Sequence record: PZ445457.1
From: a phage
Strand: one strand, 5' to 3'
Length of the DNA stretch: 39,466 nt
The notes below the pieces were generated by a model. That model was not told where the DNA came from. It did no database searches and saw only the letters and a list, made by a program, of their open reading frames with translations. Numbering within the stretch: the first letter of the stretch is position 1; each line of letters starts with the position of its first letter. Below, one piece after another: positions 88 to 36,523 of this stretch. The position numbers and the translations under genes were made by a program.

Positions 88-110
88 CAATACGACTCAC
101 TATTGGGAAG
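88..110 (+). promoter_or_regulatory. Phage RNAP promoter (phi13-like)
   Basis: caatacgactcactattgggaag, 23-mer matching the T7 class III promoter core, between gene 12 stop and gene 13 start. Confidence 0.8.
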
Positions 111-137
111 GGGGTTTATACTTAAAGGAGAAACTCT

Positions 138-551
138 ATGTTAATAATCAGACCTACTAAAGAAACAGACTTCGAGAGATTCACTCCGTCACCTGAAGAC
201 ATCGCTGAGGCACATGCCTACGGGATTGAACCATCATTTCCACCAGCTAATGAGTGTGTCACTATGTCCCTTCATGGGATGCCAGTGGCTATAGGTGGCA
301 ATTGTGGCGACCAAGTGTGGTTCGTGACGTCCGCTCGTGTTTGGAAACTAAGCGTGAAGACCCGAAGAGAGTTCCGAAAGCTCATTCTGGAGTATCGTGA
401 TACCATGCTCAAACAGTATCCGATTATCTGGAACTACGTTTGGGTCGGCAACAAGTCCCACATTAGGTTCTTGAAGTCTATTGGTGCGGTGTTCCATAAT
501 GAGTTTACTGGTGACAGTAATCAATTCCAACTATTCACTATAGGAGGTTAA
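138..551 (+). CDS. gene 13: Internal virion protein gp13-like (137 aa)
   Basis: ORF in the syntenic slot between genes 12 and 14, T7 gp13-like size; assigned by position only. Confidence 0.7.
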   Translation: MLIIRPTKETDFERFTPSPEDIAEAHAYGIEPSFPPANECVTMSLHGMPVAIGGNCGDQVWFVTSARVWKLSVKTRREFRKLILEYRDTMLKQYPIIWNYVWVGNKSHIRFLKSIGAVFHNEFTGDSNQFQLFTIGG

Positions 552-553
552 CT

Positions 554-1159
554 ATGTGCTGGATGGCTGCAATCCCAATCGCCATGCAAGGTGCGTCTAT
601 GGTAATGGGCGGTATGCAGGGTGAACAGGCAAAGGCCGCACAGATTGACCAAGGTCGTCGACAAAGCTGGCAGATGATTAAGGAGATGAACTACAACGAT
701 GCTAACCTTAAGTTAGAATCCCGTGACCTCATCGACTCGACTGTCCAAGAGATGACCCAAGCGAATATGAACCGTGTGCGAAACATGGGGACTATCCGTG
801 CGGCAATCGGTGAAGGGATGCTTGAAGGTAACTCAATGGAACGTGTAGCTCGCGTTACTGAGGGTGACTTCCTTCGAGAGTCTCAAGGTCTCACCGAGAA
901 CTACCAACGTGACTACAGTGTCATCTTAGGGAAGCGATTGGCTAACCGTGAGAACACAGTAAGTCAAATCAATGAAATCAACAAGTCCGAACCGCGTCTG
1001 AAAGGCAAGCTGGAACAAATCATTGACCCATTAGGCTTAGGCTTAACGAAGCTGGTCGATGTGGCAACTGCTGGTAGCCCTCTGACTGACAAGCCGGGTA
1101 AGAAGGCAGCTTCCAAGGTTAAGGCTTCAGATGCTAAGTCTACCGGACAAGGCAGGTAA
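554..1159 (+). CDS. gene 14: Internal virion (core) protein gp14 (201 aa)
   Basis: N-terminus MCWMAAIPIA and motifs IRAAIGEGMLEG, RVTEG, ENYQRDY match recalled T7 gp14. Confidence 0.9.
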   Translation: MCWMAAIPIAMQGASMVMGGMQGEQAKAAQIDQGRRQSWQMIKEMNYNDANLKLESRDLIDSTVQEMTQANMNRVRNMGTIRAAIGEGMLEGNSMERVARVTEGDFLRESQGLTENYQRDYSVILGKRLANRENTVSQINEINKSEPRLKGKLEQIIDPLGLGLTKLVDVATAGSPLTDKPGKKAASKVKASDAKSTGQGR

Positions 1160-1176
1160 ACACAGGAGGTAACTGT

Positions 1177-3456: not shown

Positions 3457-3479
3457 CAGACCACGATAGGAGGTTCCAA

Positions 3480-7428: not shown

Positions 7429-7451
7429 CAATACGACTCACTAATGGGAAG
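7429..7451 (+). promoter_or_regulatory. Phage RNAP promoter (phi17-like)
   Basis: caatacgactcactaatgggaag immediately upstream of the tail fiber gene. Confidence 0.8.
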
Positions 7452-7498: not shown

Positions 7499-9466
7499 AT
7501 GGCTAACAAGATTCGTACTGTGATGACTTACCCGCTGAATGGTGCCGTGAACTTCACGATTACCTTTGATTATCTGGCTCGTAAGTTCATCCAAGTGACA
7601 CTTATTGGTAAAGACCGTAAAGAACTGGTTCTCAATCAGGACTACCGTTTTACCAGTAAGACTCAAATTACAACTACTCGTGCGTGGACTGCCGCTGATG
7701 GCTACCAGATGATTGAGATTCGTCGATTCACTTCGGCTACCGACCGTCTGGTTGATTTTGCTGATGGCTCAATCCTCCGTGCATATGACCTGAACATCTC
7801 GCAGATTCAAACCCTGCACGTTGCCGAAGAAGCACGAGACCTCACTGCGGATACCATTGGTGTCAACAATGATGGTCACTTAGATGCTCGTGGTCGTAAG
7901 ATTGTCAACTTGGCGTATGCCACAAATGACTATGATGCTGTTCCTTTAAAGCAGGTTAAAGAGCGTGAATCCTCTGCATGGAATGCTGTAACAAAGGCTA
8001 ACGAACATGCCGACCGTTCCAATAAGGAAGCAAACCGTTCTCGTGATGAGGCCAACCGTGCTCAACGTGAAGCTGACCGCTCAACTCAACAGGCAGGTGT
8101 CTCTACGCAACAAGCAGTTGAGTCCAAGAAGCAAGCTGACCGTTCCAACTCTGAGGCCAACCGAGCTAAAGGTTATGCTGAAAGTATGACCGCAAGTGTC
8201 GCTGAGGCTAAGAAACAGGCTGACCGTTCCAACTCTGAGGCTAATCGTGCTCGTGATGAGGCCAACCGTGCTGCTGGAGAAGTGACTAAAGCTGCCGCTG
8301 AGGTTGCCAAGGCTGCTGCACACGTTGAGACCGCTAAGGGCCATGCTGACCGAGCCAACACTGAGGCAAACCGCTCTAAGAGTGAAGCTGACCGTGCAAA
8401 GACCGAGGCTGACAAGTTGGGGAACATGAACTCACTGGCTGAGGCTATTGACAGGGTTGAGGCTCCTGATGTTTACTTCAAGAGGAATGTTATAGCCGGA
8501 CACAGATTGGAGACTTCTGGAGGCTCACATCTTCACCCTAATGAGATTAAATTGGTTAACAATAAATCTCCAGACCAGCACTTCATTGTACAAGCGTGGG
8601 GAACTGGAGATCCTAATAATAGGGCGCAGGTGTTTGAGGTGAAGGATAACTTGGGTCAATACGCATTCTATATCCAGCGCCAGAAGAAGACAGACCAAAC
8701 TTGGCAAATGAGTGTGAACGGCTCTCTATCCTGCCAAATAGTAAATTCAAACTTGGGAATAGAATCCACTAACGAGAAGGCCACTGTCAAGTTTAAGACG
8801 TGGGGTGGTGGGTGGGACCAATGGACTGGTGTTGGTGTCCCTAACGTGCAGCATGACATTGCGGGACAGGGAGATGTAGCGTATCTCCTTGAGAGGGCAA
8901 CGATATGGGGCAAGGAACATTTATATGCAAAGGCATTATATAACAACGGCAATGGGGCATCATTCTTCATTCGCCACTACCTGAGAGGGGCATACTTTGA
9001 CCTACGGTCCGATGGCACTCTTATCAGTTCGACTGGTTGGAATATCCCAGCCGATGGCAACCTGTACATCAGGAAGTATGGGCTGTACATTGACGCGTGG
9101 GTCAACAAACGCCTTGGCGAACATGCCTACAACAAGAGCGAGACAGACAACCTAGTGAATGGTCGATTGACACAAGCACAAGCTGATGGGCGATACGTCC
9201 GTAAGAATGCTGGGTGGGCTGAAGTGTGGGAAGGAAGTGCTGGAGGTGGTGTCTCGGTGGGTCTCTCTCAAGATGTCCGCTGGAGAACCATCTGGATTCA
9301 AACACAAGGTCGATGGAACCCTGTTCAAATTGGGGACAATGGGTCTTACTATATCTCATCGAACGGAGGTTGGCTACAGTTTACCATCTCGAATAACGGT
9401 AGAACATTCCGTAACGATGCGGATAGAGCCTCTGTTCCTACGAGAATCTTGGTTCAAAACCAATAA
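7499..9466 (+). CDS. gene 17: Tail fiber protein gp17 (655 aa); conserved N-terminal tail-attachment domain, expanded repetitive shaft, divergent C-terminal receptor-binding region
   Basis: N-terminal ~150 aa and C-terminal tip (WEGSAGGGVSVGLSQDVRWRTIWI...SNGGWLQFTISNNG) match recalled T7 gp17; middle contains ADRSNxEANRA repeats. Confidence 0.95.
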   Translation: MANKIRTVMTYPLNGAVNFTITFDYLARKFIQVTLIGKDRKELVLNQDYRFTSKTQITTTRAWTAADGYQMIEIRRFTSATDRLVDFADGSILRAYDLNISQIQTLHVAEEARDLTADTIGVNNDGHLDARGRKIVNLAYATNDYDAVPLKQVKERESSAWNAVTKANEHADRSNKEANRSRDEANRAQREADRSTQQAGVSTQQAVESKKQADRSNSEANRAKGYAESMTASVAEAKKQADRSNSEANRARDEANRAAGEVTKAAAEVAKAAAHVETAKGHADRANTEANRSKSEADRAKTEADKLGNMNSLAEAIDRVEAPDVYFKRNVIAGHRLETSGGSHLHPNEIKLVNNKSPDQHFIVQAWGTGDPNNRAQVFEVKDNLGQYAFYIQRQKKTDQTWQMSVNGSLSCQIVNSNLGIESTNEKATVKFKTWGGGWDQWTGVGVPNVQHDIAGQGDVAYLLERATIWGKEHLYAKALYNNGNGASFFIRHYLRGAYFDLRSDGTLISSTGWNIPADGNLYIRKYGLYIDAWVNKRLGEHAYNKSETDNLVNGRLTQAQADGRYVRKNAGWAEVWEGSAGGGVSVGLSQDVRWRTIWIQTQGRWNPVQIGDNGSYYISSNGGWLQFTISNNGRTFRNDADRASVPTRILVQNQ

Positions 9467-10519: not shown

Positions 10520-11077
10520 ATGTCTACTGTAAACTCAAGAACCCGTACAATCTGGACTATCAATGGTCGCTCACCGGACAGCCGCGATATGTACGACCGA
10601 AACAATGTTGGCCTTCGTGTTGGGCGTATCGACATCCCGGCTTCAGAAATGGTCAAGGTAGATGGATACGACAAGGTTGAGTATGTGGTCCAACTGAGTG
10701 ATGGTACAACCGAGCAACATGCTACCTTTGAGATCCTGATGTCCACTTGGGGTGGCTCCGTCGAGTCTAAACCGGGTAGTGGGTTCATGACGGTATTCCT
10801 GAATGAGCAAAGCGCTGAGCGGCTCGGTATGGTTCGAATCGACGTATACAAAGAGTGGACTGGTGCCGACCCTGAACCAGAAGGTGGTTCTGCTTCGTTA
10901 GTTAGTGCAGCGCTTTCTGCGTCTGATAGTGCATTTGGTACACAGTTCGTGGATAGCGAAGGAAAGAGCGCTTCCGTTATGTTCCAACCTAGTAACATCG
11001 ACGGGGCTGTATCTAAGACCGACACTATCAAGGCTCTTGAGAAGCGAATCGCTGCTTTAGAGAAACCTACCGAGTAA
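10520..11077 (+). CDS. Hypothetical protein (185 aa), lineage-specific insertion between 18.5 and terminase large subunit; no recognisable motifs
   Basis: Strong RBS taaggag 7 nt upstream, natural-looking composition, no Cys/His motifs, C-terminal amphipathic helix KTDTIKALEKRIAALEK. No T7 counterpart at this position that I recall. Confidence 0.7.
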   Translation: MSTVNSRTRTIWTINGRSPDSRDMYDRNNVGLRVGRIDIPASEMVKVDGYDKVEYVVQLSDGTTEQHATFEILMSTWGGSVESKPGSGFMTVFLNEQSAERLGMVRIDVYKEWTGADPEPEGGSASLVSAALSASDSAFGTQFVDSEGKSASVMFQPSNIDGAVSKTDTIKALEKRIAALEKPTE

Positions 11078-12940: not shown

Positions 12941-12963
12941 TAATACGACTCACTATTGGGAAG
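12941..12963 (+). promoter_or_regulatory. Phage RNAP promoter (phiOR-like), upstream of gene 19.5
   Basis: taatacgactcactattgggaag. Confidence 0.8.
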
Positions 12964-13276: not shown

Positions 13277-13738
13277 ACTGCTCATCGGCGCTTAGTGCGC
13301 TCTTAGTGATTATGGTCGATATATACATCTTCCCTATAATCACTGTAAGAAGTCAACTCTAAGAGTAACCCTTATGTACCACTCTCTATGGTCTACAGGG
13401 TCTCTTAGGGTCTCTCACGTAGTCTCACCGCTATGCTCCTGCGTAGCACCTTATGATAGAGCCTCTGTGGTTAACCTTATGAGCCTTGATGTACCCCCCT
13501 TTAAGAATCCTACAGAAAAATCTGAGAGGGTATCTCATAGTTCATACAAAGTGTTTCCCCCCTATGGCCTCCTTCAGTCCACTCAAAGAGTGCCACCCCT
13601 ATGGTAACTTTATGTTTACTTAATGTCAATCCTTATGTGAGACATTGGGATGACTTATGGTTCACCACTAGATGTGGTGCTTAGGGTGACTTAGTGATAC
13701 TATATGTAGTCCTCTATGTGTCCCTATCTGTAAGTGAC

Positions 13739-14077: not shown

Positions 14078-14100
14078 TTATACGACTCACTAATGGGATA
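14078..14100 (+). promoter_or_regulatory. Phage RNAP promoter (phiOL-like)
   Basis: ttatacgactcactaatgggata, first phage promoter after the genome-end region. Confidence 0.65.
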
Positions 14101-14322: not shown

Positions 14323-14351
14323 TTGACTCAACGAAAGCAATAACGTAGTAT
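14323..14351 (+). promoter_or_regulatory. Host sigma70-type early promoter (A2-like)
   Basis: TTGACT, 17-nt spacer, TAGTAT. Confidence 0.6.
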
Positions 14352-14416: not shown

Positions 14417-14446
14417 TTGACAAGTAGTGACGATAAGATGTAAGAT
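14417..14446 (+). promoter_or_regulatory. Host sigma70-type early promoter (A3-like)
   Basis: TTGACA, 18-nt spacer, TAAGAT followed by GTACCAC as in recalled T7 A3. Confidence 0.6.
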
Positions 14447-14637
14447 GTACCACGACATAACGTTCTTGTGATGTCCCACACTGAAAGGGACTCGGTGCTA
14501 ACGAAGCCTGCACTTAAAGCTCTTTAACAATTTGGATGAATAGCACTCTTGAGATGACGACAACAGCGATTAACTCAAGGTGACTCGAAAGAGAGAAGCC
14601 TTTATGATAATCACTGCAACCACATAAGGTAATCATC

Positions 14638-15096
14638 ATGATTCACACTAAAGAGCAAGCTAACGTTTTCTATGTACTGGTAAGCGCATTCCGTTCTAAC
14701 CTCGACGATGAGGTCAACATGAGTCGCCACCGCCACATGGTTAATAATCTGCGCAACGCACCGGGTCTTTATGGTATCGTTGAGTCTACCGATTTAACTG
14801 GCTGTTACCGCGAAGCCATCTCAAGTGCACCGACTGAAGAGAAAACAATCCGTGTACGTTGTAAAGACAAGGCACAGGTTCTTAATGTCGCACGACTGGC
14901 CTGTAATGAGTGGGAACAAGATTGCGTACTGGTCTATAAGTCACAGACTCACACGGCTGGCTTAGTGTACGCTAAAGGCATTGACGGCTATAAGGCTGAA
15001 CGTCTGCAAGGTAGCTTCCAGCGCATCCCTAAAGGTGCACCAATCCAAGGCTGCTTCACGGTTGACGAGTTCGGCAAATACTGGCAGGTAGCATAA
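14638..15096 (+). CDS. gene 0.3: S-adenosyl-L-methionine hydrolase (SAMase), T3-type gene 0.3 anti-restriction protein (152 aa)
   Basis: ...VFYVLVSAFRSNL.DEVNMSRHRHMV...STDLTGCYREAISSAPTEEKT.RVRCKDKAQ.LNVARLACNEWEQDCVLVYKSQTHTAGLVYAKGIDGYKAERL matches recalled T3 SAMase, not T7 Ocr. Confidence 0.85.
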   Translation: MIHTKEQANVFYVLVSAFRSNLDDEVNMSRHRHMVNNLRNAPGLYGIVESTDLTGCYREAISSAPTEEKTIRVRCKDKAQVLNVARLACNEWEQDCVLVYKSQTHTAGLVYAKGIDGYKAERLQGSFQRIPKGAPIQGCFTVDEFGKYWQVA

Positions 15097-16639: not shown

Positions 16640-19288
16640 ATGAACGTAATCAACGCACCAAAGAATGACTTCTCTGACATCGCTAACGCAATCCAGCCGT
16701 ACAACATTCTGGCTGACCATTACGGCGCACAGCTTGCAGCTACACAGCTTGAATTGGAACATGAAGCACACACTGAGGGCGAGAAGCGTTTTCTTAAGGC
16801 GATGGAACGTCAAATCAAAGCTGGTGAGTTCGGTGATAACGCAGTGGCTAAACCGCTCCTGTCATCCCTCGCACCGAAGTTCATCGAAGCGTGGAACACT
16901 TGGTTCACTGAGGTGGAAGCGAAGCGTGGTAAGCGTCCAGTAGCCTACAATCTGGTACAGAAGGTTGCACCCGAAGCTGCTGCTTTCATCACACTGAAGG
17001 TCACACTGGCTTGCTTGACGAAAGAAGAGTTTACCAACCTGCAATCGGTCGCAACTAAGATTGGTCGCAGTATTGAGGATGAACTGCGTTTTGGTCGCAT
17101 CCGTGACGAAGAAGCGAAGCACTTTAAGAACCACGTACAGGAGGCACTGAACAAGCGCGTTGGTATCGTTTACAAGAAAGCATTCATGCAAGCCGTAGAA
17201 GGCAAGATGTTAGACGCTGGTCAACTGCAAACCAAGTGGACTACATGGACACCTGAAGAATCAATTCACGTTGGTGTGCGCATGTTGGAACTGCTCATTG
17301 GCTCTACTGGTCTCGTTGAGTTACACCGACCGTTTGCTGGTAACGTTGAGAAGGATGGCGAGTACATCCAACTGACCGAACAATACGTTGACCTGTTATC
17401 TAAGCGTGCTGGTGCACTGGCTGCAATTGCTCCGATGTACCAACCATGTGTAGTTCCTCCGAAGCCTTGGACTTCTCCGGTCGGTGGTGGCTATTGGGCT
17501 GCTGGTCGCAAGCCTCTCTCTCTGGTTCGTACTGGTTCCAAGAAGGGACTTGAGCGTTACAACGATGTGTATATGCCTGAAGTCTACAAGGCGGTGAACA
17601 TCGCACAGAATACTCCTTGGAAGATTAACAAGAAGGTTCTGGCAGTGGTCAACGAGATTGTGAACTGGAAGCATTGCCCGGTTGAAGATGTACCTGCTCT
17701 GGAACGTGGTGAACTGCCTGTCAAACCTGATGACATCGACACCAACGAGGCATCACTCAAAGCGTGGAAGAAAGCGGCCTCCGCAATCTACCGCAAAGAG
17801 AAGGCACGAGTGTCACGCCGCATGAGCATGGAGTTCATGTTAGGTCAGGCCAATAAGTTCGCACAGTTTAAAGCTATCTGGTTCCCGATGAACATGGACT
17901 GGCGCGGTCGAGTGTATGCGGTCCCAATGTTTAACCCGCAAGGCAACGACATGACCAAAGGCTTGCTGACGCTCGCTAAAGGTAAACCAATCGGTGTCGA
18001 TGGGTACTACTGGCTGAAGATTCACGGTGCGAACACTGCTGGTGTGGACAAGGTGGACTTTGCTGAGCGCATCAAGTTCATTGATGACAACCACGAGAAC
18101 ATCATGAGCGTAGCGGCTGACCCGATTGCTAACACTTGGTGGGCTGAACAAGACTCTCCGTTCTGCTTCCTCGCGTTCTGCTTTGAGTATGCGGGAGTCC
18201 AGCACCACGGGATGAACTACAACTGCTCTCTACCTCTGGCGTTCGATGGCTCTTGCTCCGGTATTCAGCACTTCTCCGCGATGCTCCGTGATGAGGTTGG
18301 TGGTCGTGCGGTTAACCTGCTGCCGAGCAAGGAAGTACAGGACATCTACCGCATCGTTGCTGAACGTGTGAACGAGATGCTCCGCGAAGCGGTAGTCAAC
18401 GGCACTGATAACGAAGTGGAAACCGTGACAAACAAGGACACCGGAGAAATCACTGAGAAGCTCAAGCTGGGAACGAAAGAGTTAGCTGGTCAGTGGCTGG
18501 CCTACGGTGTGACTCGCAAGGTCACTAAGCGTTCGGTCATGACGTTGGCTTACGGCTCCAAAGAGTATGGCTTCCGCGACCAAGTTCTTGAGGACACCAT
18601 TCAGCCAGCTATCGACGATGGCAAGGGATTGATGTTCACTCAACCGAACCAAGCGGCTGGCTACATGGCTAAACTGATTTGGGAATCGGTAACGGTCACA
18701 GTTGTCGCAGCGGTTGAAGCGATGAACTGGTTGAAGTCTGCTGCTAAACTTCTGGCTGCTGAAGTCAAGGACAAAAAGACTAAAGAAGTCCTCCGCAAGC
18801 GTTGCGCAGTACATTGGGTTACTCCTGATGGCTTCCCGGTATGGCAGGAATACAAGAAGCCAGTACAGACCCGCTTGAATCTGATGTTCTTAGGCCAGAT
18901 TCGTCTACAGCCTACCGTGAACACCAACAAGGATAGCGGGATTGATGCTCGTAAACAGGAGTCAGGCATCGCACCTAACTTTGTCCACTCAATGGATGGA
19001 AGCCACCTGAGAATGACTGTAGTGCGCTCCAATGAGGTCTACGGTGTGGAATCCTTCGCACTGATTCATGACTCCTTTGGCACTATCCCGGCTGATGCTG
19101 GCAACCTGTTTAAAGCAGTGCGTGAAACGATGGTCAACACTTACGAAGAGAACGATGTACTTGCAGACTTCTATGAGCAATTTGCTGACCAGTTGCACGA
19201 GACACAGCTTGATAAGATGCCTGAGATGCCAGCTAAAGGCTCTCTGGACCTGCAAGAAATCCTTAAGTCAGACTTTGCGTTTGCCTAA
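16640..19288 (+). CDS. gene 1: DNA-directed RNA polymerase, single-subunit T7-type (882 aa)
   Basis: Collinear with recalled T7 RNAP: motif A PLAFDGSCSGIQHF, motif C ALIHDSFGT, specificity-loop region QPTVNTNKDSGIDARKQESGIAPNFVHS, C-terminus SDFAFA. Confidence 0.98.
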   Translation: MNVINAPKNDFSDIANAIQPYNILADHYGAQLAATQLELEHEAHTEGEKRFLKAMERQIKAGEFGDNAVAKPLLSSLAPKFIEAWNTWFTEVEAKRGKRPVAYNLVQKVAPEAAAFITLKVTLACLTKEEFTNLQSVATKIGRSIEDELRFGRIRDEEAKHFKNHVQEALNKRVGIVYKKAFMQAVEGKMLDAGQLQTKWTTWTPEESIHVGVRMLELLIGSTGLVELHRPFAGNVEKDGEYIQLTEQYVDLLSKRAGALAAIAPMYQPCVVPPKPWTSPVGGGYWAAGRKPLSLVRTGSKKGLERYNDVYMPEVYKAVNIAQNTPWKINKKVLAVVNEIVNWKHCPVEDVPALERGELPVKPDDIDTNEASLKAWKKAASAIYRKEKARVSRRMSMEFMLGQANKFAQFKAIWFPMNMDWRGRVYAVPMFNPQGNDMTKGLLTLAKGKPIGVDGYYWLKIHGANTAGVDKVDFAERIKFIDDNHENIMSVAADPIANTWWAEQDSPFCFLAFCFEYAGVQHHGMNYNCSLPLAFDGSCSGIQHFSAMLRDEVGGRAVNLLPSKEVQDIYRIVAERVNEMLREAVVNGTDNEVETVTNKDTGEITEKLKLGTKELAGQWLAYGVTRKVTKRSVMTLAYGSKEYGFRDQVLEDTIQPAIDDGKGLMFTQPNQAAGYMAKLIWESVTVTVVAAVEAMNWLKSAAKLLAAEVKDKKTKEVLRKRCAVHWVTPDGFPVWQEYKKPVQTRLNLMFLGQIRLQPTVNTNKDSGIDARKQESGIAPNFVHSMDGSHLRMTVVRSNEVYGVESFALIHDSFGTIPADAGNLFKAVRETMVNTYEENDVLADFYEQFADQLHETQLDKMPEMPAKGSLDLQEILKSDFAFA

Positions 19289-19295: not shown

Positions 19296-19318
19296 TAATA
19301 CGACTCACTATTGGGAGC
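19296..19318 (+). promoter_or_regulatory. Phage RNAP promoter (phi1.1A-like)
   Basis: taatacgactcactattgggagc, followed by gggagccttcgggcttcc stem-loop. Confidence 0.8.
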
Positions 19319-19377: not shown

Positions 19378-19935
19378 ATGTTTACTTTAATCACTTCAGT
19401 AGGCGCTCTCGTATCAACCATTCTTGCAGCAACATACTATAATCGTTCAAAGGTATTTCTCACTAAGCTAATCAAAGAAGAGAAGAACTCTCATGCACTC
19501 AAAGAGAGACTTGAAGATGGATGGCGAGAGAAGCAGGAACTAGCTGGTCGAATCCGTACCTTAGAGTTCGAACAACAATATGACATGTCGAACCAACGAG
19601 AACTCATTGAGCGTCTACGCGCTGAGGCAGTGGAGTACCGCAAGGAACTTAAAGAGGCAAAGAGTACCATCCGTGAGTACACTCACAGTGACATCACGTC
19701 TATCAAGTTTACTGCACACATACCGGATGATGGATGGAAGCGCACTGAGTTCAAGCTGGGTCTTGGCTCGTGCGGTAAGCAAGTCACCTGCCTACATTGG
19801 GTGGAACAAGCCGACCGCTACCTGCTGACGCAGACGTGCACTGATGGTGAGCGCAAAGAGTTCACCTATTATAAGAAAGATGTAGCGGGTCGCATTGAGA
19901 TTGCACGTAAGGTTGCAGACAATACGACTCACTAA
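19378..19935 (+). CDS. Hypothetical membrane-anchored coiled-coil protein (185 aa), in the slot between gene 1 and gene 1.1 (T3 gene 1.05-like position)
   Basis: RBS gagga plus repeated ctttaag motifs upstream; N-terminal TM helix MFTLITSVGALVSTILAATYY, central charged coiled-coil, Cys-containing C-terminal domain. T7 has no gene here as I recall. Confidence 0.7.
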   Translation: MFTLITSVGALVSTILAATYYNRSKVFLTKLIKEEKNSHALKERLEDGWREKQELAGRIRTLEFEQQYDMSNQRELIERLRAEAVEYRKELKEAKSTIREYTHSDITSIKFTAHIPDDGWKRTEFKLGLGSCGKQVTCLHWVEQADRYLLTQTCTDGERKEFTYYKKDVAGRIEIARKVADNTTH

Positions 19936-19942
19936 TGGGAAA
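19920..19942 (+). promoter_or_regulatory. Phage RNAP promoter (phi1.1B-like), embedded in the 3' end of the 19378..19935 ORF
   Basis: caatacgactcactaatgggaaa; the ORF terminal codons N-T-T-H-stop are encoded by the promoter itself. Confidence 0.75.
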
Positions 19943-20176: not shown

Positions 20177-20448
20177 TGGGTCGCTTATACAGTGGTAACT
20201 TAATGGCGTTCAAGGATGCCATCGCGAGACTTAAAGAAGACCACGATGTGAGTGTGGTCGTTGAGACTTTCCGCTATGAGAACTATGCGAGGATGCGCTG
20301 GGTATCCGGTGAGACTCTTCGAGTGGTCTTGCGGAATGGCTTAGTGTTAACCTCCAAGTGTTTCGAACAGGACGATGAAGACGTTCGCTGCAATGCACAG
20401 ACTGAATGGCTTCGTAAGGTACACAGTGACCTGAAGCACTGGAAGTAA
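20176..20448 (+). CDS. gene 1.2: gp1.2, inhibitor of host dGTP triphosphohydrolase (90 aa)
   Basis: MGRLYSGNL.AFK...DEDV...WL...DLK.WK matches recalled T7 gp1.2 N- and C-termini. Confidence 0.8.
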   Translation: MGRLYSGNLMAFKDAIARLKEDHDVSVVVETFRYENYARMRWVSGETLRVVLRNGLVLTSKCFEQDDEDVRCNAQTEWLRKVHSDLKHWK

Positions 20449-20468
20449 TACGACTCACTATTGCGAAA
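20446..20468 (+). promoter_or_regulatory. Phage RNAP promoter (phi1.3-like; +2 C variant)
   Basis: taatacgactcactattgcgaaa. Confidence 0.6.
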
Positions 20469-21579: not shown

Positions 21580-21614
21580 GGTCAGTCCTTAGCGGGGCTG
21601 GCCTTTTTGCGTTT
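21580..21614 (+). terminator. Rho-independent terminator (TE-like early terminator) after the ligase gene
   Basis: ggtcagtcc-ttagc-ggggctggcc stem (with G-U pairs) followed by tttttgcgttt. Confidence 0.6.
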
Positions 21615-21636
21615 CTATACGACTCACTATGGAGGA
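21615..21636 (+). promoter_or_regulatory. Degenerate phage promoter-like sequence (one nt short around the start site)
   Basis: ctatacgactcactatggagga; upstream half conserved, initiation region deviates. Confidence 0.4.
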
Positions 21637-21644
21637 ACAACCTC

Positions 21645-21725
21645 ATGCTATTTCTTATTGCTGCTGTTATCTTTGCCACGTTCGCCTTCGTTATCATTGA
21701 CGACAACTGCTGGCCTGATTGCTAA
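21645..21725 (+). CDS. Hypothetical hydrophobic peptide (26 aa)
   Basis: RBS ggagga 8 nt upstream; MLFLIAAVIFATFAFVIIDDNCWPDC; T7 gene 1.4/1.5 region. Confidence 0.3.
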   Translation: MLFLIAAVIFATFAFVIIDDNCWPDC

Positions 21726-21745
21726 TACGACTCACCTATGGAGGA
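21723..21745 (+). promoter_or_regulatory. Degenerate phage promoter-like sequence
   Basis: taatacgactcacctatggagga; -17 to -5 perfect, -4 to +4 diverged. Confidence 0.35.
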
Positions 21746-21752
21746 AACACTT

Positions 21753-22016
21753 ATGTTACGACTACACTTCAACAAATCAAATGGCATCTTCTCTGCCCGT
21801 GGCGCTGACCGTTCAACCGTTCTGGCCTCTGAGAAACATGCAGTCATCCCTAAAGTGCTTGGCTCGACCATTGAGTTAGCACCTCGTGTTCATGCTGTAA
21901 TCACCACTGGCTTATATAAAGAAGCGACCACTGGCTCCCGGCCTTTCATTCCGGTTCTCGTCACCCGTTTCCCTAAAGTCCGTCTGGTAATTGCGCGTAT
22001 CAAGGAGGTGTTCTAA
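21753..22016 (+). CDS. gp1.6-like protein (87 aa)
   Basis: ATG after RBS ggagga; MLRLHFNKSNGIFSARGADRS...; assigned by position and size in the gene 1.6 slot. Confidence 0.6.
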   Translation: MLRLHFNKSNGIFSARGADRSTVLASEKHAVIPKVLGSTIELAPRVHAVITTGLYKEATTGSRPFIPVLVTRFPKVRLVIARIKEVF

Positions 22017-22502: not shown

Positions 22503-22694
22503 ATGAGCAACTTAAACAAAGGGTCACTAGTAAACGGTGACAAGAAGTTCTTCGCAACGGTCGAAGGCCAAGGCCAATCGTTCGAAGTCCCTGTGTTCGC
22601 TGCGTCTCTTGAAGAGGCCAACGAGTTAGCTGAATGGCAGTATGTTCCGGCTGGCTTCGCAGTGACACGCATCCGTCCAGACCGAAAGGTTTAA
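22503..22694 (+). CDS. gene 2: gp2, inhibitor of host RNA polymerase (63 aa)
   Basis: [59 protein letters not shown] matches recalled T7 Gp2; start is an internal ATG of the 22485 track ORF. Confidence 0.9.
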
Positions 22695-22714
22695 TAGGAC
22701 TCACTATTGGGAGA
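22692..22714 (+). promoter_or_regulatory. Phage RNAP promoter (phi2.5-like; -12 G variant)
   Basis: taataggactcactattgggaga. Confidence 0.7.
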
Positions 22715-23462: not shown

Positions 23463-23908
23463 TGGCTAAGGGTTATGCAGGTCGAGGCACTCGTGTGGGT
23501 GCCTTTCGCTCTGGCTTGGAGGATAAGGTAAGCAAGCAACTCGAAGGGAAGAACATTAAGTTCGACTACGAGCGTTGGCGTGTACCATATGTTGTTCCTG
23601 CAAGCAACCATACCTATTGCCCGGACTTCCTGTTACCTAATGGCATCTTTGTGGAAACAAAGGGTCTGTGGGATAGTGACGACCGCAAGAAACACTTACT
23701 GATTCGTGAACAGTATCCTGAACTTGATGTGCGCATCGTGTTCTCTTCTAGTCGCTCCAAGCTGTACAAAGGGTCTCCGACCAGTTATGGCGAGTGGTGT
23801 GAGAAGCATGGCATTCTGTTTGCTGACAAATTAATTCCAGTTGATTGGCTTAAAGAGCCTTCTAAGGATGTTCCATTCGATAAATTTAAAGAGGTGAAGA
23901 AGAAATGA
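23462..23908 (+). CDS. gene 3: Endonuclease I (Holliday junction resolvase) gp3 (148 aa)
   Basis: VGAFRSGLEDKVSKQLE...PASNHTY.PDFLLPNGIFVETKGLW.SDDRKKHLLIREQ matches recalled T7 gp3. Confidence 0.97.
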   Translation: MAKGYAGRGTRVGAFRSGLEDKVSKQLEGKNIKFDYERWRVPYVVPASNHTYCPDFLLPNGIFVETKGLWDSDDRKKHLLIREQYPELDVRIVFSSSRSKLYKGSPTSYGEWCEKHGILFADKLIPVDWLKEPSKDVPFDKFKEVKKK

Positions 23909-24360
23909 GTAAGGTACAATTCAAACCACGCGCTGTGACAGAAGCAATCTTTGTGCACTGTAGCGCAACTAAGGCGACCATGAACGTGGGTCTGCGTGAA
24001 ATCCGTCAGTGGCATAAAGAACAGGGCTGGCTTGATGTAGGCTACCACTTCATTATTCGCCGCGATGGTACAATCGAAGAAGGCCGTCCGGTCGATGTCG
24101 TTGGGTCTCACGTTAAGGACTGGAACAGTAAGTCAGTCGGTGTGTGCCTCGTTGGTGGTATCGACGATAAGGGCAGACACGAAGCTAACTTTACGCCAGC
24201 ACAGATGCACTCTCTGAAAGAGAAACTTGCAGACCTGCTGGACATGTATCCAGATGCTGAAGTGAAAGCTCACCATGACGTTGCACCTAAAGCGTGTCCG
24301 TCTTTCAACTTGAGTCGCTGGCTGAAAACTGGCGAATTAGTAACTAGTGATTGGGGTTAA
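23905..24360 (+). CDS. gene 3.5: N-acetylmuramoyl-L-alanine amidase (T7 lysozyme) gp3.5 (151 aa)
   Basis: AIFVHCSATK...REIRQWHKEQGWLDVGYHFII.RDGT...SIGVCLVGGIDDKG...ANFTPAQM...HH.VAPKACPSF matches recalled T7 gp3.5. Confidence 0.97.
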   Translation: MSKVQFKPRAVTEAIFVHCSATKATMNVGLREIRQWHKEQGWLDVGYHFIIRRDGTIEEGRPVDVVGSHVKDWNSKSVGVCLVGGIDDKGRHEANFTPAQMHSLKEKLADLLDMYPDAEVKAHHDVAPKACPSFNLSRWLKTGELVTSDWG

Positions 24361-24365: not shown

Positions 24366-24458
24366 ATGATGATTATTCACGAGATGGGCCTGTACGATTT
24401 GATTTATCGCCTCGCGTTCATGCTGGCAATGGTCTACATTCTGACCCGCAAGGATTAA
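24366..24458 (+). CDS. Hypothetical small hydrophobic peptide (30 aa)
   Basis: MMIIHEMGLYDLIYRLAFMLAMVYILTRKD; between lysozyme and primase genes; no strong RBS. Confidence 0.25.
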   Translation: MMIIHEMGLYDLIYRLAFMLAMVYILTRKD

Positions 24459-24478
24459 TAGAACTCACTATGGGAGGA
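24456..24478 (+). promoter_or_regulatory. Degenerate phage promoter-like sequence (phi3.8/phi4-like)
   Basis: taatagaactcactatgggagga; deviates at -12/-11 and is one nt short before GGGA. Confidence 0.4.
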
Positions 24479-26403: not shown

Positions 26404-26426
26404 CAATACAACTCACTAATGGGACA
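26404..26426 (+). promoter_or_regulatory. Phage RNAP promoter (phi4.3-like; -11 A variant)
   Basis: caatacaactcactaatgggaca, followed by a 5' stem-loop (acaga-cac-tctgt). Confidence 0.6.
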
Positions 26427-27234: not shown

Positions 27235-27257
27235 TCTATTCAACTCACTAATGGGAG
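27235..27257 (+). promoter_or_regulatory. Degenerate phage promoter-like sequence
   Basis: tctattcaactcactaatgggag; -10 to +4 conserved, AT-rich upstream part diverged. Confidence 0.3.
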
Positions 27258-27265
27258 AACAACAC

Positions 27266-27445
27266 TATGCGTAATCGTAATGTAATCGAAGCTGAAATCG
27301 CTAAACTGGAAGCTGAACTGGCAGACGTTAAAGAGTATGAATGTGCTCGTGATTCTGCGGTACACATCCTGAAGAACTTAGGGTGGACTCGTGTTCGCGG
27401 TAAGTGGGGTGAAACCTACCAAGGCAAACACCAAGCTGTTCGATA
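27266..27445 (+). CDS. Hypothetical protein (59 aa)
   Basis: MRNRNVIEAEIAKLEAELADVKEYE... short coiled-coil then basic tail; below track cutoff. Confidence 0.4.
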
Positions 27446-29800: not shown

Positions 29801-29815
29801 TACAGGAGGCCGCTT

Positions 29816-30043: not shown

Positions 30044-30055
30044 AGGAGAAACATC

Positions 30056-31469: not shown

Positions 31470-31555
31470 TGTTCGCAATCGTAGCCTTCGCTATGGTGTG
31501 GGCTGCATTTATAGCTAAGAGTGTGTAACTCTAGGCATTCTTCTCTACGTGAAAT

Positions 31556-31578
31556 CAATACGACTCACTATTGGAGAG
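31556..31578 (+). promoter_or_regulatory. Phage RNAP promoter (phi6.5-like)
   Basis: caatacgactcactattggagag. Confidence 0.7.
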
Positions 31579-31631
31579 GGGTGCCTATATGATACCTACT
31601 TTAAGTTCTAACTTTAAGGAGAACATTAATT

Positions 31632-31877: not shown

Positions 31878-31892
31878 TCATATGGAGGTCTT

Positions 31893-32165: not shown

Positions 32166-32179
32166 TTAGGAGGTGTATC

Positions 32180-32536
32180 ATGGGTTGGGGCAAAAAGATT
32201 CGCAAATCAGTCAAGAAGGCTGTCAGGAAAGTAACCAAGCCTGTAGAGAAAGCTGTTAAGCAGGTCGGTAAGGCTGGTGAAGACATCGTTAAAGGTGCTG
32301 CTGGTGTCGTTAGTGGTGTTCTGGCTGGTGGTAAGCCTGATGTACAAGTCGTTGAGACCCCTGCTGCTGCTGTACAGGCTGCACCTCCGGCTGCACAGAT
32401 TATCGAGCCACCGAGTAAAGACGATGTAGACTCCGATGATGGTGCACAGACTGAATCAGGTAAGAAGAAAGCCCGTGCTGGCGGTAAGAAATCTCTAAGT
32501 GTCGCTCGCAGTTCTGGCGGTGGTCTTAACATTTAA
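32180..32536 (+). CDS. gene 7.3: gp7.3 virion/tail-associated protein (118 aa)
   Basis: C-terminus AQTESGKKKARAGGKKSLSVARSSGGGLNI matches recalled T7 gp7.3. Confidence 0.9.
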   Translation: MGWGKKIRKSVKKAVRKVTKPVEKAVKQVGKAGEDIVKGAAGVVSGVLAGGKPDVQVVETPAAAVQAAPPAAQIIEPPSKDDVDSDDGAQTESGKKKARAGGKKSLSVARSSGGGLNI

Positions 32537-32548
32537 TAAGGAGGCACT

Positions 32549-34150
32549 ATGGCAAGCTCACAGAAACGTGAAGGCTTTGCGGAGAATGGTGCCAAGGCTG
32601 TGTATGACGCATTGAAGAACGATCGGAACTCCTATGAGACCCGTGCGGAAAACTGTGCGAAGTACACAATCCCCTCGTTGTTCCCTAAAGACTCCGACAA
32701 CGCATCAACCGACTACACCACTCCGTGGCAAGCAGTAGGTGCTCGTGGACTGAACAACTTGGCCTCTAAGCTCATGCTCGCTCTGTTCCCTATGCAGACT
32801 TGGATGAAGCTGACCATCTCTGAGTTCGAAGCGAAACAATTGGTTGCACAACCTGCTGAACTGGCGAAGGTCGAAGAGGGTCTCTCAATGGTCGAGCGTA
32901 TCTTGATGAACTACATCGAGTCAAACTCATACCGTGTGACACTCTTTGAGACCCTGAAGCAGTTGGTCGTAGCGGGTAACGCTCTGCTCTACATCCCGGA
33001 ACCTGAAGGTACTTACAATCCCATGAAGTTATACCGACTGTCTTCTTATGTTGTCCAACGAGACGCATTCGGCACGGTACTACAGATTGTGACCTTGGAT
33101 AAGACTGCCTATGCAGCACTACCAGAAGACGTAAGGAACTCTATGGACTCCGGTACGGAACATAAAGGCGATGAAATGATTGACGTGTATACTCACATTT
33201 ATCTCGATGAGGAATCAGGCGAATACCTGAAGTACGAAGAGATTGATGGAGTCGAAGTTGATGGTACAGATGCTTCTTATCCGGTGGACGCTTGTCCTTA
33301 TATCCCGGTTCGCATGGTACGCATTGATGGGGAATCATACGGTCGTTCATACTGTGAGGAATACTTGGGTGACTTACGTTCCCTTGAGAACCTTCAGGAA
33401 GCTATCGTCAAGATGTCCATGATTAGTGCAAAGGTTATCGGCTTGGTAAACCCTGCTGGCATCACACAGGTTCGACGCTTGACCAAAGCACAGACTGGTG
33501 ACTTCGTGTCCGGTCGTCCAGAAGACATCTCGTTCCTGCAACTCGAAAAGGCCGCTGACTTCTCCGTGGCTCGTGCTGTTAGTGAACAGATTGAAGGCCG
33601 ACTGTCCTATGCCTTTATGCTGAACTCCGCTGTGCAACGTACTGGTGAGCGTGTGACTGCCGAAGAGATTCGTTATGTTGCATCTGAACTCGAAGATACC
33701 CTTGGTGGTGTCTATTCGATTCTCTCACAGGAACTTCAGTTGCCAATGGTGCGTGTCCTGCTGAAACAACTTCAAGCAACCAATCAGATTCCTGAGTTAC
33801 CGAAAGAGGCCGTTGAGCCTACTATCAGTACCGGGATGGAAGCATTGGGTCGTGGTCAAGACCTCGATAAGCTGGAACGCTGTATTGCTGCGTGGTCTGC
33901 TCTTGCTCCTATGCAGAATGACCCGGACATCAACATTGCGACCATTAAGTTGCGCATTGCGAACGCTATCGGCATCGACACTTCTGGTATCCTTAAGACA
34001 CCTGAAGAGAAGCAACAAGAGATGGCTGAGGCCGCTCAAGGCACTGCTATGGAGAACGCTGCTGCGTCTGCTGGTGCTGGTGCTGGTGCTCTGGCTACCG
34101 CAAGCCCTGAGAACATGCAAGCTGCGGCTGAACAGGCTGGCATGATTTAA
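32549..34150 (+). CDS. gene 8: Portal (head-tail connector) protein gp8 (533 aa)
   Basis: Long collinear identity with recalled T7 gp8 (YTIPSLFPKDSDNASTDY.TPWQAVGARGLNNLASKLMLALFPMQTWM, GESYGRSY.EEYLGDLRSLENLQEAIVKMSMIS). Confidence 0.98.
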   Translation: MASSQKREGFAENGAKAVYDALKNDRNSYETRAENCAKYTIPSLFPKDSDNASTDYTTPWQAVGARGLNNLASKLMLALFPMQTWMKLTISEFEAKQLVAQPAELAKVEEGLSMVERILMNYIESNSYRVTLFETLKQLVVAGNALLYIPEPEGTYNPMKLYRLSSYVVQRDAFGTVLQIVTLDKTAYAALPEDVRNSMDSGTEHKGDEMIDVYTHIYLDEESGEYLKYEEIDGVEVDGTDASYPVDACPYIPVRMVRIDGESYGRSYCEEYLGDLRSLENLQEAIVKMSMISAKVIGLVNPAGITQVRRLTKAQTGDFVSGRPEDISFLQLEKAADFSVARAVSEQIEGRLSYAFMLNSAVQRTGERVTAEEIRYVASELEDTLGGVYSILSQELQLPMVRVLLKQLQATNQIPELPKEAVEPTISTGMEALGRGQDLDKLERCIAAWSALAPMQNDPDINIATIKLRIANAIGIDTSGILKTPEEKQQEMAEAAQGTAMENAAASAGAGAGALATASPENMQAAAEQAGMI

Positions 34151-34170
34151 TACGACTCACTAATGGGAGA
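34148..34170 (+). promoter_or_regulatory. Phage RNAP promoter (phi9-like)
   Basis: ttaatacgactcactaatgggag overlapping the gene 8 stop. Confidence 0.8.
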
Positions 34171-34222
34171 GACACCACGTCCTCCCTTTGAGTTCAAACT
34201 TTAATTGAAGGAGATTACAATT

Positions 34223-35134
34223 ATGGCTGGTGAATCTAACGCTGATGTATACGCATCTTTTGGTGTGAACTCTGCGGTTGTCGGTGGGTCTACTCCTACT
34301 GACCACGAACAGGCTATGCTTGAACTCGACGTTGCTGCCCGTGATGGTGATGATGCAATCGAGTTAGTAAGTAATGATGACCCGTATGGCAATCCAGACC
34401 CGTTCGGTGAGGAAGACGAAGACCGCACTGAGATTCGTATCTCCACTGATGGTGAACCTGAAGTAAGCGAAGATGGCGAAATCGAATACGAAGAGGCAGA
34501 AGGTGACGAAGCTGATGGTTTCGAACCAGTTGGTGACATTCCGGCTGAACTGAATGAAGCCTCAAGTCAACTCGAAGAGCATGAAGCTGGCTTTGAAGAG
34601 ATGGTCAATCAGGCTGCTGAACGTGGTCTGTCAGAAGAGACCATTGTCCGTATCCAACAGGAGTATGGCGAAGATGGCCTGTCAGAAGAGTCTTATGAAG
34701 AACTGGCGAAGGCTGGTTACTCTAAGTCCTTTGTTGACTCCTACATCCGTGGTCAGGAAGCTCTGGTAGACCAGTACGTTAAGTCTGTCATGCAGTTCGC
34801 TGGTGGTGAAGAACAGTTCCAAGCAATCTATAGTCACCTCGAAGTATCAAACCCTGATGCTGCCGAGTCTCTGATTAGTGCTCTGGAAAATCGTGACATC
34901 GCTACAGTGAAGGCTATCGTAAATCTCGCTGGTGCAAGCCGTGCGAAGACTTTCGGTAAACCTGCTGCTCGCAGTATCTCTAAACGTGCCGTACCTGCTG
35001 CACCTGTGCGCACCAAACAGTCTGGCTTTGAGTCACAGGCTGAGATGATTAGTGCAATGTCTGACCCTCGCTACCGCACGGACTCTAAGTTCCGAGCAGA
35101 AGTTGAGCGCAAGATGATGTACAGTCAGTTCTAA
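34223..35134 (+). CDS. gene 9: Capsid assembly (scaffolding) protein gp9 (303 aa)
   Basis: MAGESNADVYASFGVNSAV... and C-terminal AMSDPRYRTDSKFRAEVERKMMYSQF match recalled T7 gp9; start is an internal ATG after RBS gaaggag. Confidence 0.95.
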   Translation: MAGESNADVYASFGVNSAVVGGSTPTDHEQAMLELDVAARDGDDAIELVSNDDPYGNPDPFGEEDEDRTEIRISTDGEPEVSEDGEIEYEEAEGDEADGFEPVGDIPAELNEASSQLEEHEAGFEEMVNQAAERGLSEETIVRIQQEYGEDGLSEESYEELAKAGYSKSFVDSYIRGQEALVDQYVKSVMQFAGGEEQFQAIYSHLEVSNPDAAESLISALENRDIATVKAIVNLAGASRAKTFGKPAARSISKRAVPAAPVRTKQSGFESQAEMISAMSDPRYRTDSKFRAEVERKMMYSQF

Positions 35135-35137
35135 AAT

Positions 35138-35160
35138 TAATACGACTCACTATTGGGAGA
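35138..35160 (+). promoter_or_regulatory. Phage RNAP promoter (phi10-like), full consensus match
   Basis: taatacgactcactattgggaga followed by 5' stem-loop gggaga...tctccc and a leader containing ttaaactttaa plus RBS aaggag. Confidence 0.85.
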
Positions 35161-35261
35161 GACATTACGTTCTCCCACTTTGAGTGATACACAATGAGAA
35201 CCAACTCGTTTCAAGTAGTACCTCACACATTAAACTTTAAATCAACAGAAGGAGATTCAAC

Positions 35262-36305
35262 ATGGCTAAGATGAATGGTGGTCAGCAAATTGGTAAAGAC
35301 CAAGGTAAAGGTATGTCTGCTGGTGATAAACTGGCTCTGTTCCTGAAAGTGTTCGGTGGTGAAGTTCTTACCGCGTTTACTCGTACCTCTGTTACCATGA
35401 ACAAACACCTCGTGCGTTCCATTCAGTCCGGTAAGTCCGCGCAGTTCCCTGTGCTGGGTCGTACCAAAGCTGCTTACCTGCAACCGGGTGAGAACCTCGA
35501 TGACAAACGTAAAGACATGAAGCACACTGAGAAGGTCATCAACATCGATGGTCTGCTGACTGCTGACGTTCTGATTTACGACATCGAAGACGCAATGAAC
35601 CACTATGACGTGCGCTCCGAGTATACCGCACAGTTGGGTGAATCTCTTGCGATGGCTGCTGATGGCGCGGTTCTGGCTGAAATGGCTAAACTGTGTAACC
35701 TGCCGTCTGCGTCTAATGAGAACATCGCTGGTCTCGGTAAGGCTTATGTACTGGAAGTTGGCAAGCAGTCTGATCTTCAGGGAGACCAAGTTAAGCTGGG
35801 TCAGGCTATTATCGCACAGTTAACTCTGGCTCGTGCCAAGCTGACTAGCAACTATGTTCCGTCTGCTGACCGTGTGTTCTACACCACTCCAGACAACTAC
35901 TCTGCTATTCTGGCTGCTCTGATGCCTAACGCTGCAAACTATCAGGCTCTGATTGACCCGTCTACTGGCTCTATCCGCAACGTTATGGGCTTCGAAGTTA
36001 TTGAGGTTCCGCATCTGACTGCTGGTGGTGCTGGCGAAGACCGTCCAGAAGAGGGTGTAAATCCGACTGGTCAGAAACATGCGTTCCCTGAGACTTCCTC
36101 TGGTGACACCCGTGTTGCTCTGGACAACGTTGTCGGTCTGTTCAATCACCGCTCTGCCGTTGGTACTGTTAAGCTGAAAGATATGGCACTGGAACGTGCT
36201 CGTCGAGCTAACTTCCAAGCAGACCAGATTATCGCTAAGTACGCTATGGGTCACGGTGGTCTGCGCCCTGAAGCATGTGGTGCGCTGGTTTTCAACAAGG
36301 CTTAA
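35262..36305 (+). CDS. gene 10A: Major capsid protein gp10A (347 aa)
   Basis: Collinear with recalled T7 gp10A (GDKLALFLKVFGGEVLTAF.RTSVT, DKRKD.KHTEKVI.IDGLLTADVLIYDIEDAMNHYDVRSEYT, ERARRANFQADQIIAKYAMGHGGLRPEA). Confidence 0.98.
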   Translation: MAKMNGGQQIGKDQGKGMSAGDKLALFLKVFGGEVLTAFTRTSVTMNKHLVRSIQSGKSAQFPVLGRTKAAYLQPGENLDDKRKDMKHTEKVINIDGLLTADVLIYDIEDAMNHYDVRSEYTAQLGESLAMAADGAVLAEMAKLCNLPSASNENIAGLGKAYVLEVGKQSDLQGDQVKLGQAIIAQLTLARAKLTSNYVPSADRVFYTTPDNYSAILAALMPNAANYQALIDPSTGSIRNVMGFEVIEVPHLTAGGAGEDRPEEGVNPTGQKHAFPETSSGDTRVALDNVVGLFNHRSAVGTVKLKDMALERARRANFQADQIIAKYAMGHGGLRPEACGALVFNKA

Positions 36306-36439
36306 CTTCTCGCAAACTCGTAGGGGACACTGAGTCCCTTACTGAAGTTGAGCAAGAGCTAACGCCACAACAGAAAGCTGCCCGTACCCGTGCGGCAAAC
36401 AAGGCTCGAAAGGAAGCTGAGTTAGCTGCTACTGAATGA
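35262..36439 (+). CDS. gene 10B: Minor capsid protein gp10B, predicted -1 frameshift product of gene 10 (about 392 aa)
   Basis: Extension after the shift: QQGLTSRKLVGDTESLTEVEQELTPQQKAARTRAANKARKEAELAATE; analogous to T7 10B by established knowledge. Confidence 0.45.
36287..36293 (+). promoter_or_regulatory. Putative -1 programmed ribosomal frameshift slippery site (G GTT TTC) near the end of gene 10A
   Basis: Heptamer GGTTTTC six codons before the 10A stop; the -1 frame is open for 48 more codons to TGA at 36437-36439. Confidence 0.5.
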
Positions 36440-36449
36440 TAACTATATG

Positions 36450-36494
36450 AAACCCCTTGGGTGCCTTCGCGGGTGCTTGAGGGGTTTTTTTTCG
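36450..36494 (+). terminator. Tphi-like terminator for phage RNAP after the capsid gene
   Basis: aaaccccttgggtgcc-ttcgc-gggtgcttgaggggttt long stem with several G-U pairs followed by a T8 tract, like recalled T7 Tphi. Confidence 0.75.
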
Positions 36495-36500
36495 TACCAC

Positions 36501-36523
36501 TAATAGACTCACTAATGGGAGGA
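36501..36523 (+). promoter_or_regulatory. Degenerate phage promoter-like sequence upstream of gene 11
   Basis: taatagactcactaatgggagga; one nt missing relative to consensus at -12. Confidence 0.3.

Follow-up and report, generated by a model that had tools for sequence, protein, structure and literature searches.

A set of 17 predicted T7-type promoters, mostly with T at position -1, in the genome of a Berlinvirus phage

The DNA of sequence record PZ445457.1 is a phage stretch of 39,466 nt, referred to here as the window, and all coordinates given below are positions within it. It carries 17 copies of a 23-nt element that resembles the promoters of phage T7. With a probability of about 0.93, the window holds the whole genome of a T7-group podophage (genus Berlinvirus) in circularly permuted form, and the 17 elements serve as promoters for the single-subunit RNA polymerase (RNAP) that this phage encodes. 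These sites keep the T7 binding element and depart from the T7 consensus at position -1, which is T in most of them.

The promoter set

A sequence-only reading of this DNA had proposed 11 strong sites and six deviant ones, and had suggested a genome scan with a position weight matrix (PWM). Such a matrix was made from the 11 strong sites and used to scan both strands. It returns just 17 sites, all of them on the + strand and at gene junctions, with scores of 17.8-39.3 bits, and none is expected by chance. The next best score is 3.0 bits, and the best one on the minus strand is 1.3. Because of this gap between 17.8 and 3.0 bits, the set of 17 sites is considered complete and far beyond chance. 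All the strong and deviant 23-mers of the earlier reading are thus present, at the coordinates that it gave for them, except for two that were off by one (27236, not 27235, and 36500, not 36501). The string ACTCACTA occurs 16 times, always on the + strand, against 1.8 expected occurrences, and the 17th site (21723) reads ACTCACCTA in its place. When the T7 23-mer itself is searched with up to three mismatches, six matches are found in the window, the best of them with one mismatch, and none is expected by chance.

CTCAC at -9 to -5 is present in 17/17 sites and GACTC in 13/17. With the register fixed on ACTCAC, position -1 is T in 15 of the 17 sites, G in the other two and A in none, whereas position -2 is T in nine and A in eight. 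An alternative alignment that restores A at -1 was rejected: the -17 to -5 element aligns with that of T7 ungapped, and would have to be moved by two bases. The late promoters differ among themselves at -17, -2 and +3 to +6, and only phi10 (35138-35160) is the strict consensus. It had been claimed that 35138 alone matches the full consensus, but under the degenerate consensus used for that claim both 34148 and 35138 match it fully. The GGGA start ascribed to the strong sites holds with the exception of 20446, which starts GCGAAA, and 31556, which starts GGAGAG.

The promoters can be compared with those of related phages. The DNA of its RNAP gene is 94-97% identical to that of SPLA4, S523, PhiV-1, Kvp1, 285P and BA14, all of them classified as Berlinvirus, and the remaining DNA of the window is ~90-93% identical to these phages (an overall difference of ~7-10%). 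Gene order and content are those of T7 and T3. GenBank annotates 16 orthologous promoters in Escherichia phage BA14 (EU734171) and 14 in Kluyvera phage Kvp1 (FJ194439), and in a gene-by-gene line-up each site of the window has an annotated counterpart in at least one of BA14, Kvp1, T7 and T3. BA14 and Kvp1 have their promoters at the same gene junctions and with the same TA(T/A)T before the start. Nine of the 16 annotated BA14 promoters are identical to those of the window and the others differ at one to three positions; single-base differences between the window and BA14 or Kvp1 are found, for instance, at -2 in phiOL, phi1.3, phi2.5 and phi17, and at +6 in phi1.05.

The promoter set is therefore already known, being annotated in the public records of close relatives and depicted in logos in a 2008 paper. 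In that work on Kvp1, the phage-specific promoters were found to be closest to those of phage Berlin, and logos of both were shown (Lingohr et al. 2008, PMC2579914). Predicted promoters at positions homologous to those of T7 have also been described for another Berlinvirus, ETEP21B, in 2024 (PMC11267873). The literature on Berlinvirus and Kvp1 promoters that was found consists of in silico predictions only, and an exact-string literature search for ACTCACTATTGGGAG gave no match. The value of the finding lies mainly in correct annotation: the window can be labelled as Berlinvirus DNA, and its transcription map, in the style of T7, is complete (17 promoters, the early terminator TE and the late terminator Tphi).

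The RNA polymerase

The enzyme that would read these sites is encoded by gene 1 (16640-19288, + strand), a T7-type single-subunit RNAP of 882 residues with matches to Pfam RNA_pol and RPOL_N. That the sites are promoters of a T7-type polymerase encoded by the same genome is upheld. The gene 1 protein is 76% identical to T7 RNAP and 98% identical to BA14 gp1, and its best match among solved structures is T7 RNAP (1cez), over the full length. In T7 numbering, the base-contacting residues R746, N748, R756 and Q758 of the specificity loop are all conserved, as are R96 and K98 of the AT-rich loop, V237, W422 and the catalytic D537 and D812. The conserved residues of the recognition loops fit the unchanged -17 to -5 element of the promoters. 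The specificity region had been described as T7-like on the basis of the motif NTNKDS; the likeness stands, through the four residues named above, whereas NTNKDS, though present, corresponds to T7 residues 762-767 and is not the recognition motif. The most divergent part of the protein is its N-terminal domain, which is 64% identical to that of T7, and in the intercalating hairpin (T7 residues 230-245) 9 of the 16 positions differ.

From -17 to -2, and again from +1 to +6, the consensus of the window is identical to that of the T7 promoters of classes II and III (TAATACGACTCACTATAGGGAGA). The window and T7 also share the number of promoters, 17 each, the layout of TE and Tphi, the class II promoters with short leaders and the 5' hairpins of transcripts. 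The T3 promoter core is AATTAACCCTCACTAAAGGGAGA, and the CCCTCAC core observed in T3 differs from the T7-type GACTCAC of the window. In its promoter inventory, the window resembles T3 in having phi1.05 and phi11, and lacks phi4c and the phi1.1A/B pair of T7. The likeness to T3 extends to the placing of phi11 directly behind Tphi, with start bases that form the ribosome-binding site of gene 11.

T at position -1

Position -1 is where the window and T7 part. No site of the window has the strict T7 (Teseptimavirus) consensus, with A at -1 in a TATA before GGGAGA, and the T that had been noticed at this position is a real and consistent difference. The accompanying statement that T7 has A there is correct for 16 of its 17 promoters and wrong for phi2.5, which reads TAATACGACTCACTATT|AGGGAA and so has T at -1. 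The other Berlinvirus genomes follow the window: Berlin, SPLA4, S523, 285P, BA14 and Kvp1 contain 9-12 copies of ACTCACTAWTGG each and none of ACTCACTAWAGG, and in T7 the same string comparison finds the A type 12 times and the TGG type not once. The sites of Berlin, SPLA4, S523 and 285P were read by string search rather than with the PWM, and the counts for these four phages leave aside their weak sites. As judged from these genomes, T at -1 is the genus-wide consensus of Berlinvirus. The 20-mer ATACGACTCACTATTGGGAG is found without mismatch in 25 IMG/VR stretches, 24 of them in contigs whose length (38.5-40.8 kb) is that of T7-like genomes.

Polymerases of the T7 type accept promoters with T at -1. 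The T7-like Escherichia phage NC-A has ATACGACTCACTATTGGGAGA at the phi2.5 position, surrounded by promoters with A at -1, and T7 phi2.5 and this NC-A variant (…ACTATTGGGAGA), both read by a T7-type polymerase, are identical from -17 to -1, including the T. They differ from the window in that T7 phi2.5 begins with A, and in that T at -1 is in T7 and NC-A a single exception among A(-1) promoters, whereas in the window it is the rule. The in vitro RNA yield of T7 phi2.5 has been reported to be similar to that of class III promoters (PMC3683919). In a barcoded library, T7 RNAP gave on TAATACGACTCACTATTGG (A-1T) an RNA/DNA ratio of 73.3, compared with 169 +/- 19 for the wild type, or ~43%, a figure that comes from one barcode, and a T-to-A change at -2 gave a ratio of 161 (PMC5937735).

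Outside Berlinvirus, the Berlin-type string TATTGGGAGA was seen among A(-1) promoters at the phi2.5 position in two T7-type sequences, NC-A (L026, 8919-8939) and L029 (5042-5062). The T7-like Stenotrophomonas phage IME15 (L017), which is not a Berlinvirus either, has A, T and C side by side at -1.

It is possible, though we do not favour it, that the Berlinvirus RNAP is a co-evolved mirror image of T7 RNAP, with measurably better initiation when -1 is T and not A, in which case the two promoter types would be partly non-equivalent at melting and initiation despite their identical binding region. A is absent from -1 in seven Berlinvirus genomes, where this position varies only to G, which looks like selection against A, and 4 of 16 orthologous groups contain both T and A at position -2, while -1 is never A. 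Moreover, T7 RNAP loses about half its activity on A-1T, so that the retention of T in a strong late promoter would be surprising if the Berlinvirus enzyme did not differ, and the difference could reside in the N-terminal domain and the intercalating hairpin, the divergence of which has been described above. However, promoters with T, A and C at -1 coexist in phages of the T7 type, which means that this position carries little information for the enzyme family, and -1 looks more constant than it otherwise would because the seven genomes are related by descent. V237 and W422, which lie closest to the melted bases from -4 to -1, are both conserved in the polymerase of the window; a literature search for structural statements linking W422 to the -1 template base returned nothing usable. 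The preferred reading is that position -1, within the melted TATA region, carries little information, and that T is what the Berlinvirus lineage has there.

The more specific proposal of an at least two-fold preference for T over A, exerted through the divergent N-terminal domain and intercalating hairpin, appears doubtful. Room for a changed preference at -1 is given by this divergence, together with the absence of A at -1 while -2 flips freely. If the proposal were true, the T7 and Berlinvirus polymerases would share their binding specificity and differ at the step of promoter melting and initiation. This would be a minor addition to the promoter code of T7 RNAP, possibly of some use in tuning expression systems.

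Several points weigh against the overall assignment of these sites and their T at -1. Literature searches found no transcript 5' ends and no in vitro transcription for any Berlinvirus, nor any experiment on a polymerase of this genus. The strength of the promoters and their division into class II and class III would follow from analogy with T7. In T7 the five class III 23-mers are identical, whereas the late promoters of the window are not identical to one another, and the class boundary is less sharp. The single barcode behind the library figure for T7 RNAP on A-1T belongs here as well.

The six deviant promoters

Six of the 17 sites depart more strongly from the consensus and score 17.8-28.4 bits, compared with 32.6-39.3 for the strong ones. 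Five of them lie in the region of the DNA-metabolism (class II) genes, and the sixth lies behind Tphi. phi1.5 (21615-21637, CTATACGACTCACTATGGAGGAA; 22.3 bits) has G at -1 and is annotated in BA14 and Kvp1. phi1.6 (21723-21745, TAATACGACTCACCTATGGAGGA; 21.6 bits) is identical to the annotated phi1.6 of BA14 and is found in Kvp1 at 8149. phi3.8 (24456-24478, TAATAGAACTCACTATGGGAGGA; 18.9 bits), named phi4A in Kvp1, is the second site with G at -1; it is annotated in BA14 and Kvp1 and is followed by a 5' hairpin. phi4.3 (26404-26426, CAATACAACTCACTAATGGGACA; 28.4 bits) is the orthologue of the annotated phi4.3 of BA14 and has a 5' hairpin of -9.8 kcal/mol, while phi4.7 (27236-27258, CTATTCAACTCACTAATGGGAGA; 24.0 bits) is identical to phi4.7 of BA14. 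Finally, phi11 (36500-36522, CTAATAGACTCACTAATGGGAGG; 17.8 bits) has a weak upstream half and is identical to the annotated phi11 of Kvp1; BA14 is without phi11.

In four of these sites an ATG follows closely, at +14 in phi1.5 (21632-21648) and phi1.6 (21740-21756) and at +15 in phi4.7 (27253-27270) and phi11 (36517-36534). The GGAGG or GGGAG start bases therefore double as the Shine-Dalgarno sequence, or ribosome-binding site, of the next gene, and this second role accounts for part of the departure from GGGAGA in phi1.5, phi1.6, phi4.7 and phi11. The same short-leader design is found in phi1.5, phi1.6, phi4.3 and phi4.7 of T7 and in phi11 of T3. Other deviations are also common to the window and T7, namely the upstream part CTATTC of phi4.7, and G at -12 and A at -11 in phi3.8.

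These sites are most likely functional, weaker promoters, as judged from their conservation. It had been suggested that they may be weak, regulated or dead: the first term probably applies and the second would do so by analogy with T7, but the third is unlikely to, given that the genus as a whole, and in part T7, has the same deviations. T7 gp3.5 inhibits the phage RNAP and shifts transcription from class II to class III promoters. A homologue is present in the window, the amidase/lysozyme gene 3.5 (23905-24360, + strand; PHROG 822 amidase, E = 2e-78), so that the deviant sites would be regulated by gp3.5, if the homologue plays the part that is known from T7 biology.

A one-nucleotide length difference had also been suggested for some of these sites. 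A T-to-G change at -1, with the register unchanged, accounts for it no less well. In the alternative, the TATGG sites phi1.5 and phi3.8 would have lost one base, and their binding element would stand one base nearer the start. The BA14 record does move the 23-mer of phi3.8 by one base, which puts GGGAGA at +1. Yet the ungapped alignment of phi1.5 and phi3.8 costs one substitution only, and that same T-to-G change is seen between phi6.5 of the window (TATTGGAGAG) and phi6.5 of Kvp1 (TATGGGAGAG), two sites that are otherwise identical. The loss of a base is thus rather unlikely, and the substitution is preferred.

That the six sites are decaying relics that no longer fire is highly improbable. 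In favour of it, their scores are lower, several are changed at -11, -12 or -4 to -1, and single-substitution variants in a published T7 library span a wide range of activity, with -9 to -7 ranked as most important by its authors. Against it, each site stands at the position of an experimentally known T7 or T3 promoter, and the deviant sequences have been kept in Berlinvirus genomes with an overall difference of ~10%, and to some extent from genus to genus. All of them also keep CTCAC at -9 to -5, and four are placed so that the transcript begins with the ribosome-binding site of the next gene.

Proposed scheme of transcription

By analogy with T7, the polymerase would bind the duplex from -17 to -5 through its AT-rich recognition loop and its specificity loop. 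It would then melt the -4 to -1 region, TA(T/A)T in this phage and TATA in T7, and initiate with GTP at the G of +1. The near-consensus sites would drive the late structural genes (phi6.5, phi9, phi10, phi13 and phi17) and the first middle genes, and would include the end promoters phiOL and phiOR. phi1.5, phi1.6, phi3.8, phi4.3 and phi4.7 are conserved and would act as probably weaker middle (class II) promoters, while phi11, behind the late terminator, would serve to re-start transcription. What has been shown is the presence of the sites, the completeness of the set, its orthology to annotated promoters and the conservation of the recognition residues in the polymerase; where transcription starts, how strong each promoter is and when it is used are inferred.

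In seven promoters (7429, 19296, 22692, 24456, 26404, 34148 and 35138) the transcript is predicted to begin with a stable 5' hairpin, from +1 to about +22, of about -9 to -12.4 kcal/mol, the 5' arm of which is the GGGAG start sequence itself. These hairpins resemble the 5' stem-loops of the T7 phi10 and phi3.8 transcripts, and several T7 promoters have such structures.

Promoters and terminators along the genome

The remaining promoters are described here in the order of the linear genome; they and both terminators are on the + strand. phiOL (14078-14100, TTATACGACTCACTAATGGGATA; 33.8 bits) lies to the right of the terminal-repeat region and is the orthologue of the annotated phiOL of BA14. 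After phiOL and before gene 0.3, the + strand has three sigma-70-like sites (14323-14351, 14417-14446 and 14580-14608), placed where T7, T3 and BA14 have the early host-RNAP promoters A1-A3, in a scan that is at background level. phi1.05 (19296-19318, TAATACGACTCACTATTGGGAGC; 37.2 bits), an annotated promoter in BA14 and Kvp1, is followed from +1 by a hairpin of -12.4 kcal/mol. phi1.1 (19920-19942, CAATACGACTCACTAATGGGAAA; 38.3 bits) is identical in BA14 and Kvp1. phi1.3 (20446-20468, TAATACGACTCACTATTGCGAAA; 37.0 bits) precedes the DNA ligase gene and has C at +2, a position that is G or A in all the other promoters of the window; its GCGA start is common to all six relatives examined (Berlin, SPLA4, S523, 285P, BA14 and Kvp1).

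The early terminator TE (21580-21613), a hairpin and T run (a 10-bp stem followed by TTTTTGCGTT), lies directly upstream of phi1.5, as placed in the annotations of BA14, Kvp1, T7 and T3. Consensus scans of the window for sigma-70 promoters and terminators were at background level overall, and TE and Tphi alone were retained from the terminator scan because they coincide with annotated terminators of the relatives.

phi2.5 (22692-22714, TAATAGGACTCACTATTGGGAGA; 36.1 bits) has a 5' hairpin of -10.6 kcal/mol and carries G at -12, which is kept in Berlin, SPLA4, S523, 285P, BA14 and Kvp1. Among the late promoters, phi6.5 (31556-31578, CAATACGACTCACTATTGGAGAG; 32.6 bits) is the orthologue of phi6.5 of BA14 and Kvp1, and phi9 (34148-34170, TAATACGACTCACTAATGGGAGA; 38.4 bits), with a 5' hairpin of -12.2 kcal/mol, is identical in both. 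The consensus promoter phi10 (TAATACGACTCACTATTGGGAGA; 39.3 bits) precedes the major capsid gene (35262-36305, with a Pfam Gp10A-like match) and is identical in BA14, Kvp1, Berlin, SPLA4, S523 and 285P. Tphi (36449-36496), the late terminator for the phage RNAP, consists of an 18-bp stem and a T run; it follows gene 10, as the annotated Tphi of BA14, T7 and T3 does, and stands directly before phi11.

Across the end of the window, phi13 (88-110, CAATACGACTCACTATTGGGAAG; 38.7 bits) is identical to phi13 of BA14 and Kvp1. phi17 (7429-7451, CAATACGACTCACTAATGGGAAG; 37.8 bits), the orthologue of phi17 of these two phages, precedes the tail-fibre gene, and the open reading frame (ORF) downstream of it has a Pfam Phage_T7_tail match. 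The last promoter, phiOR (12941-12963, TAATACGACTCACTATTGGGAAG; 39.3 bits), is identical to phiOR of BA14, to the promoter named phi19.2 in Kvp1 and to a site at 37621 in Berlin.

Genome ends and other genes

An ORF of 807 residues, gene 12 (tail tubular protein B), spans the end and the start of the window (37100-39466 joined to 1-200), and the window is therefore circularly permuted from a linear genome, with the cut within gene 12. The 194-bp terminal repeats of BA14 and Kvp1 have a homologous region at ~13533-13725, between phiOR and phiOL, which occurs in a single copy. The physical genome ends would be located there, and the packaged DNA would then exceed the window by ~190 bp. Scans for Rfam families and for tRNAs gave no matches in the window.

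Two further genes were observed. Gene 0.3 (14638-15096) encodes an S-adenosylmethionine (SAM) lyase (Pfam S-AdoMet_lyase, E = 2e-43), which is T3-like and not an Ocr of the T7 type. An ORF of 185 residues (10520-11077) lies between genes 18.5 and 19, where T7 has no gene; its counterpart in BA14 (36655-37212) is annotated as 'unknown product'.

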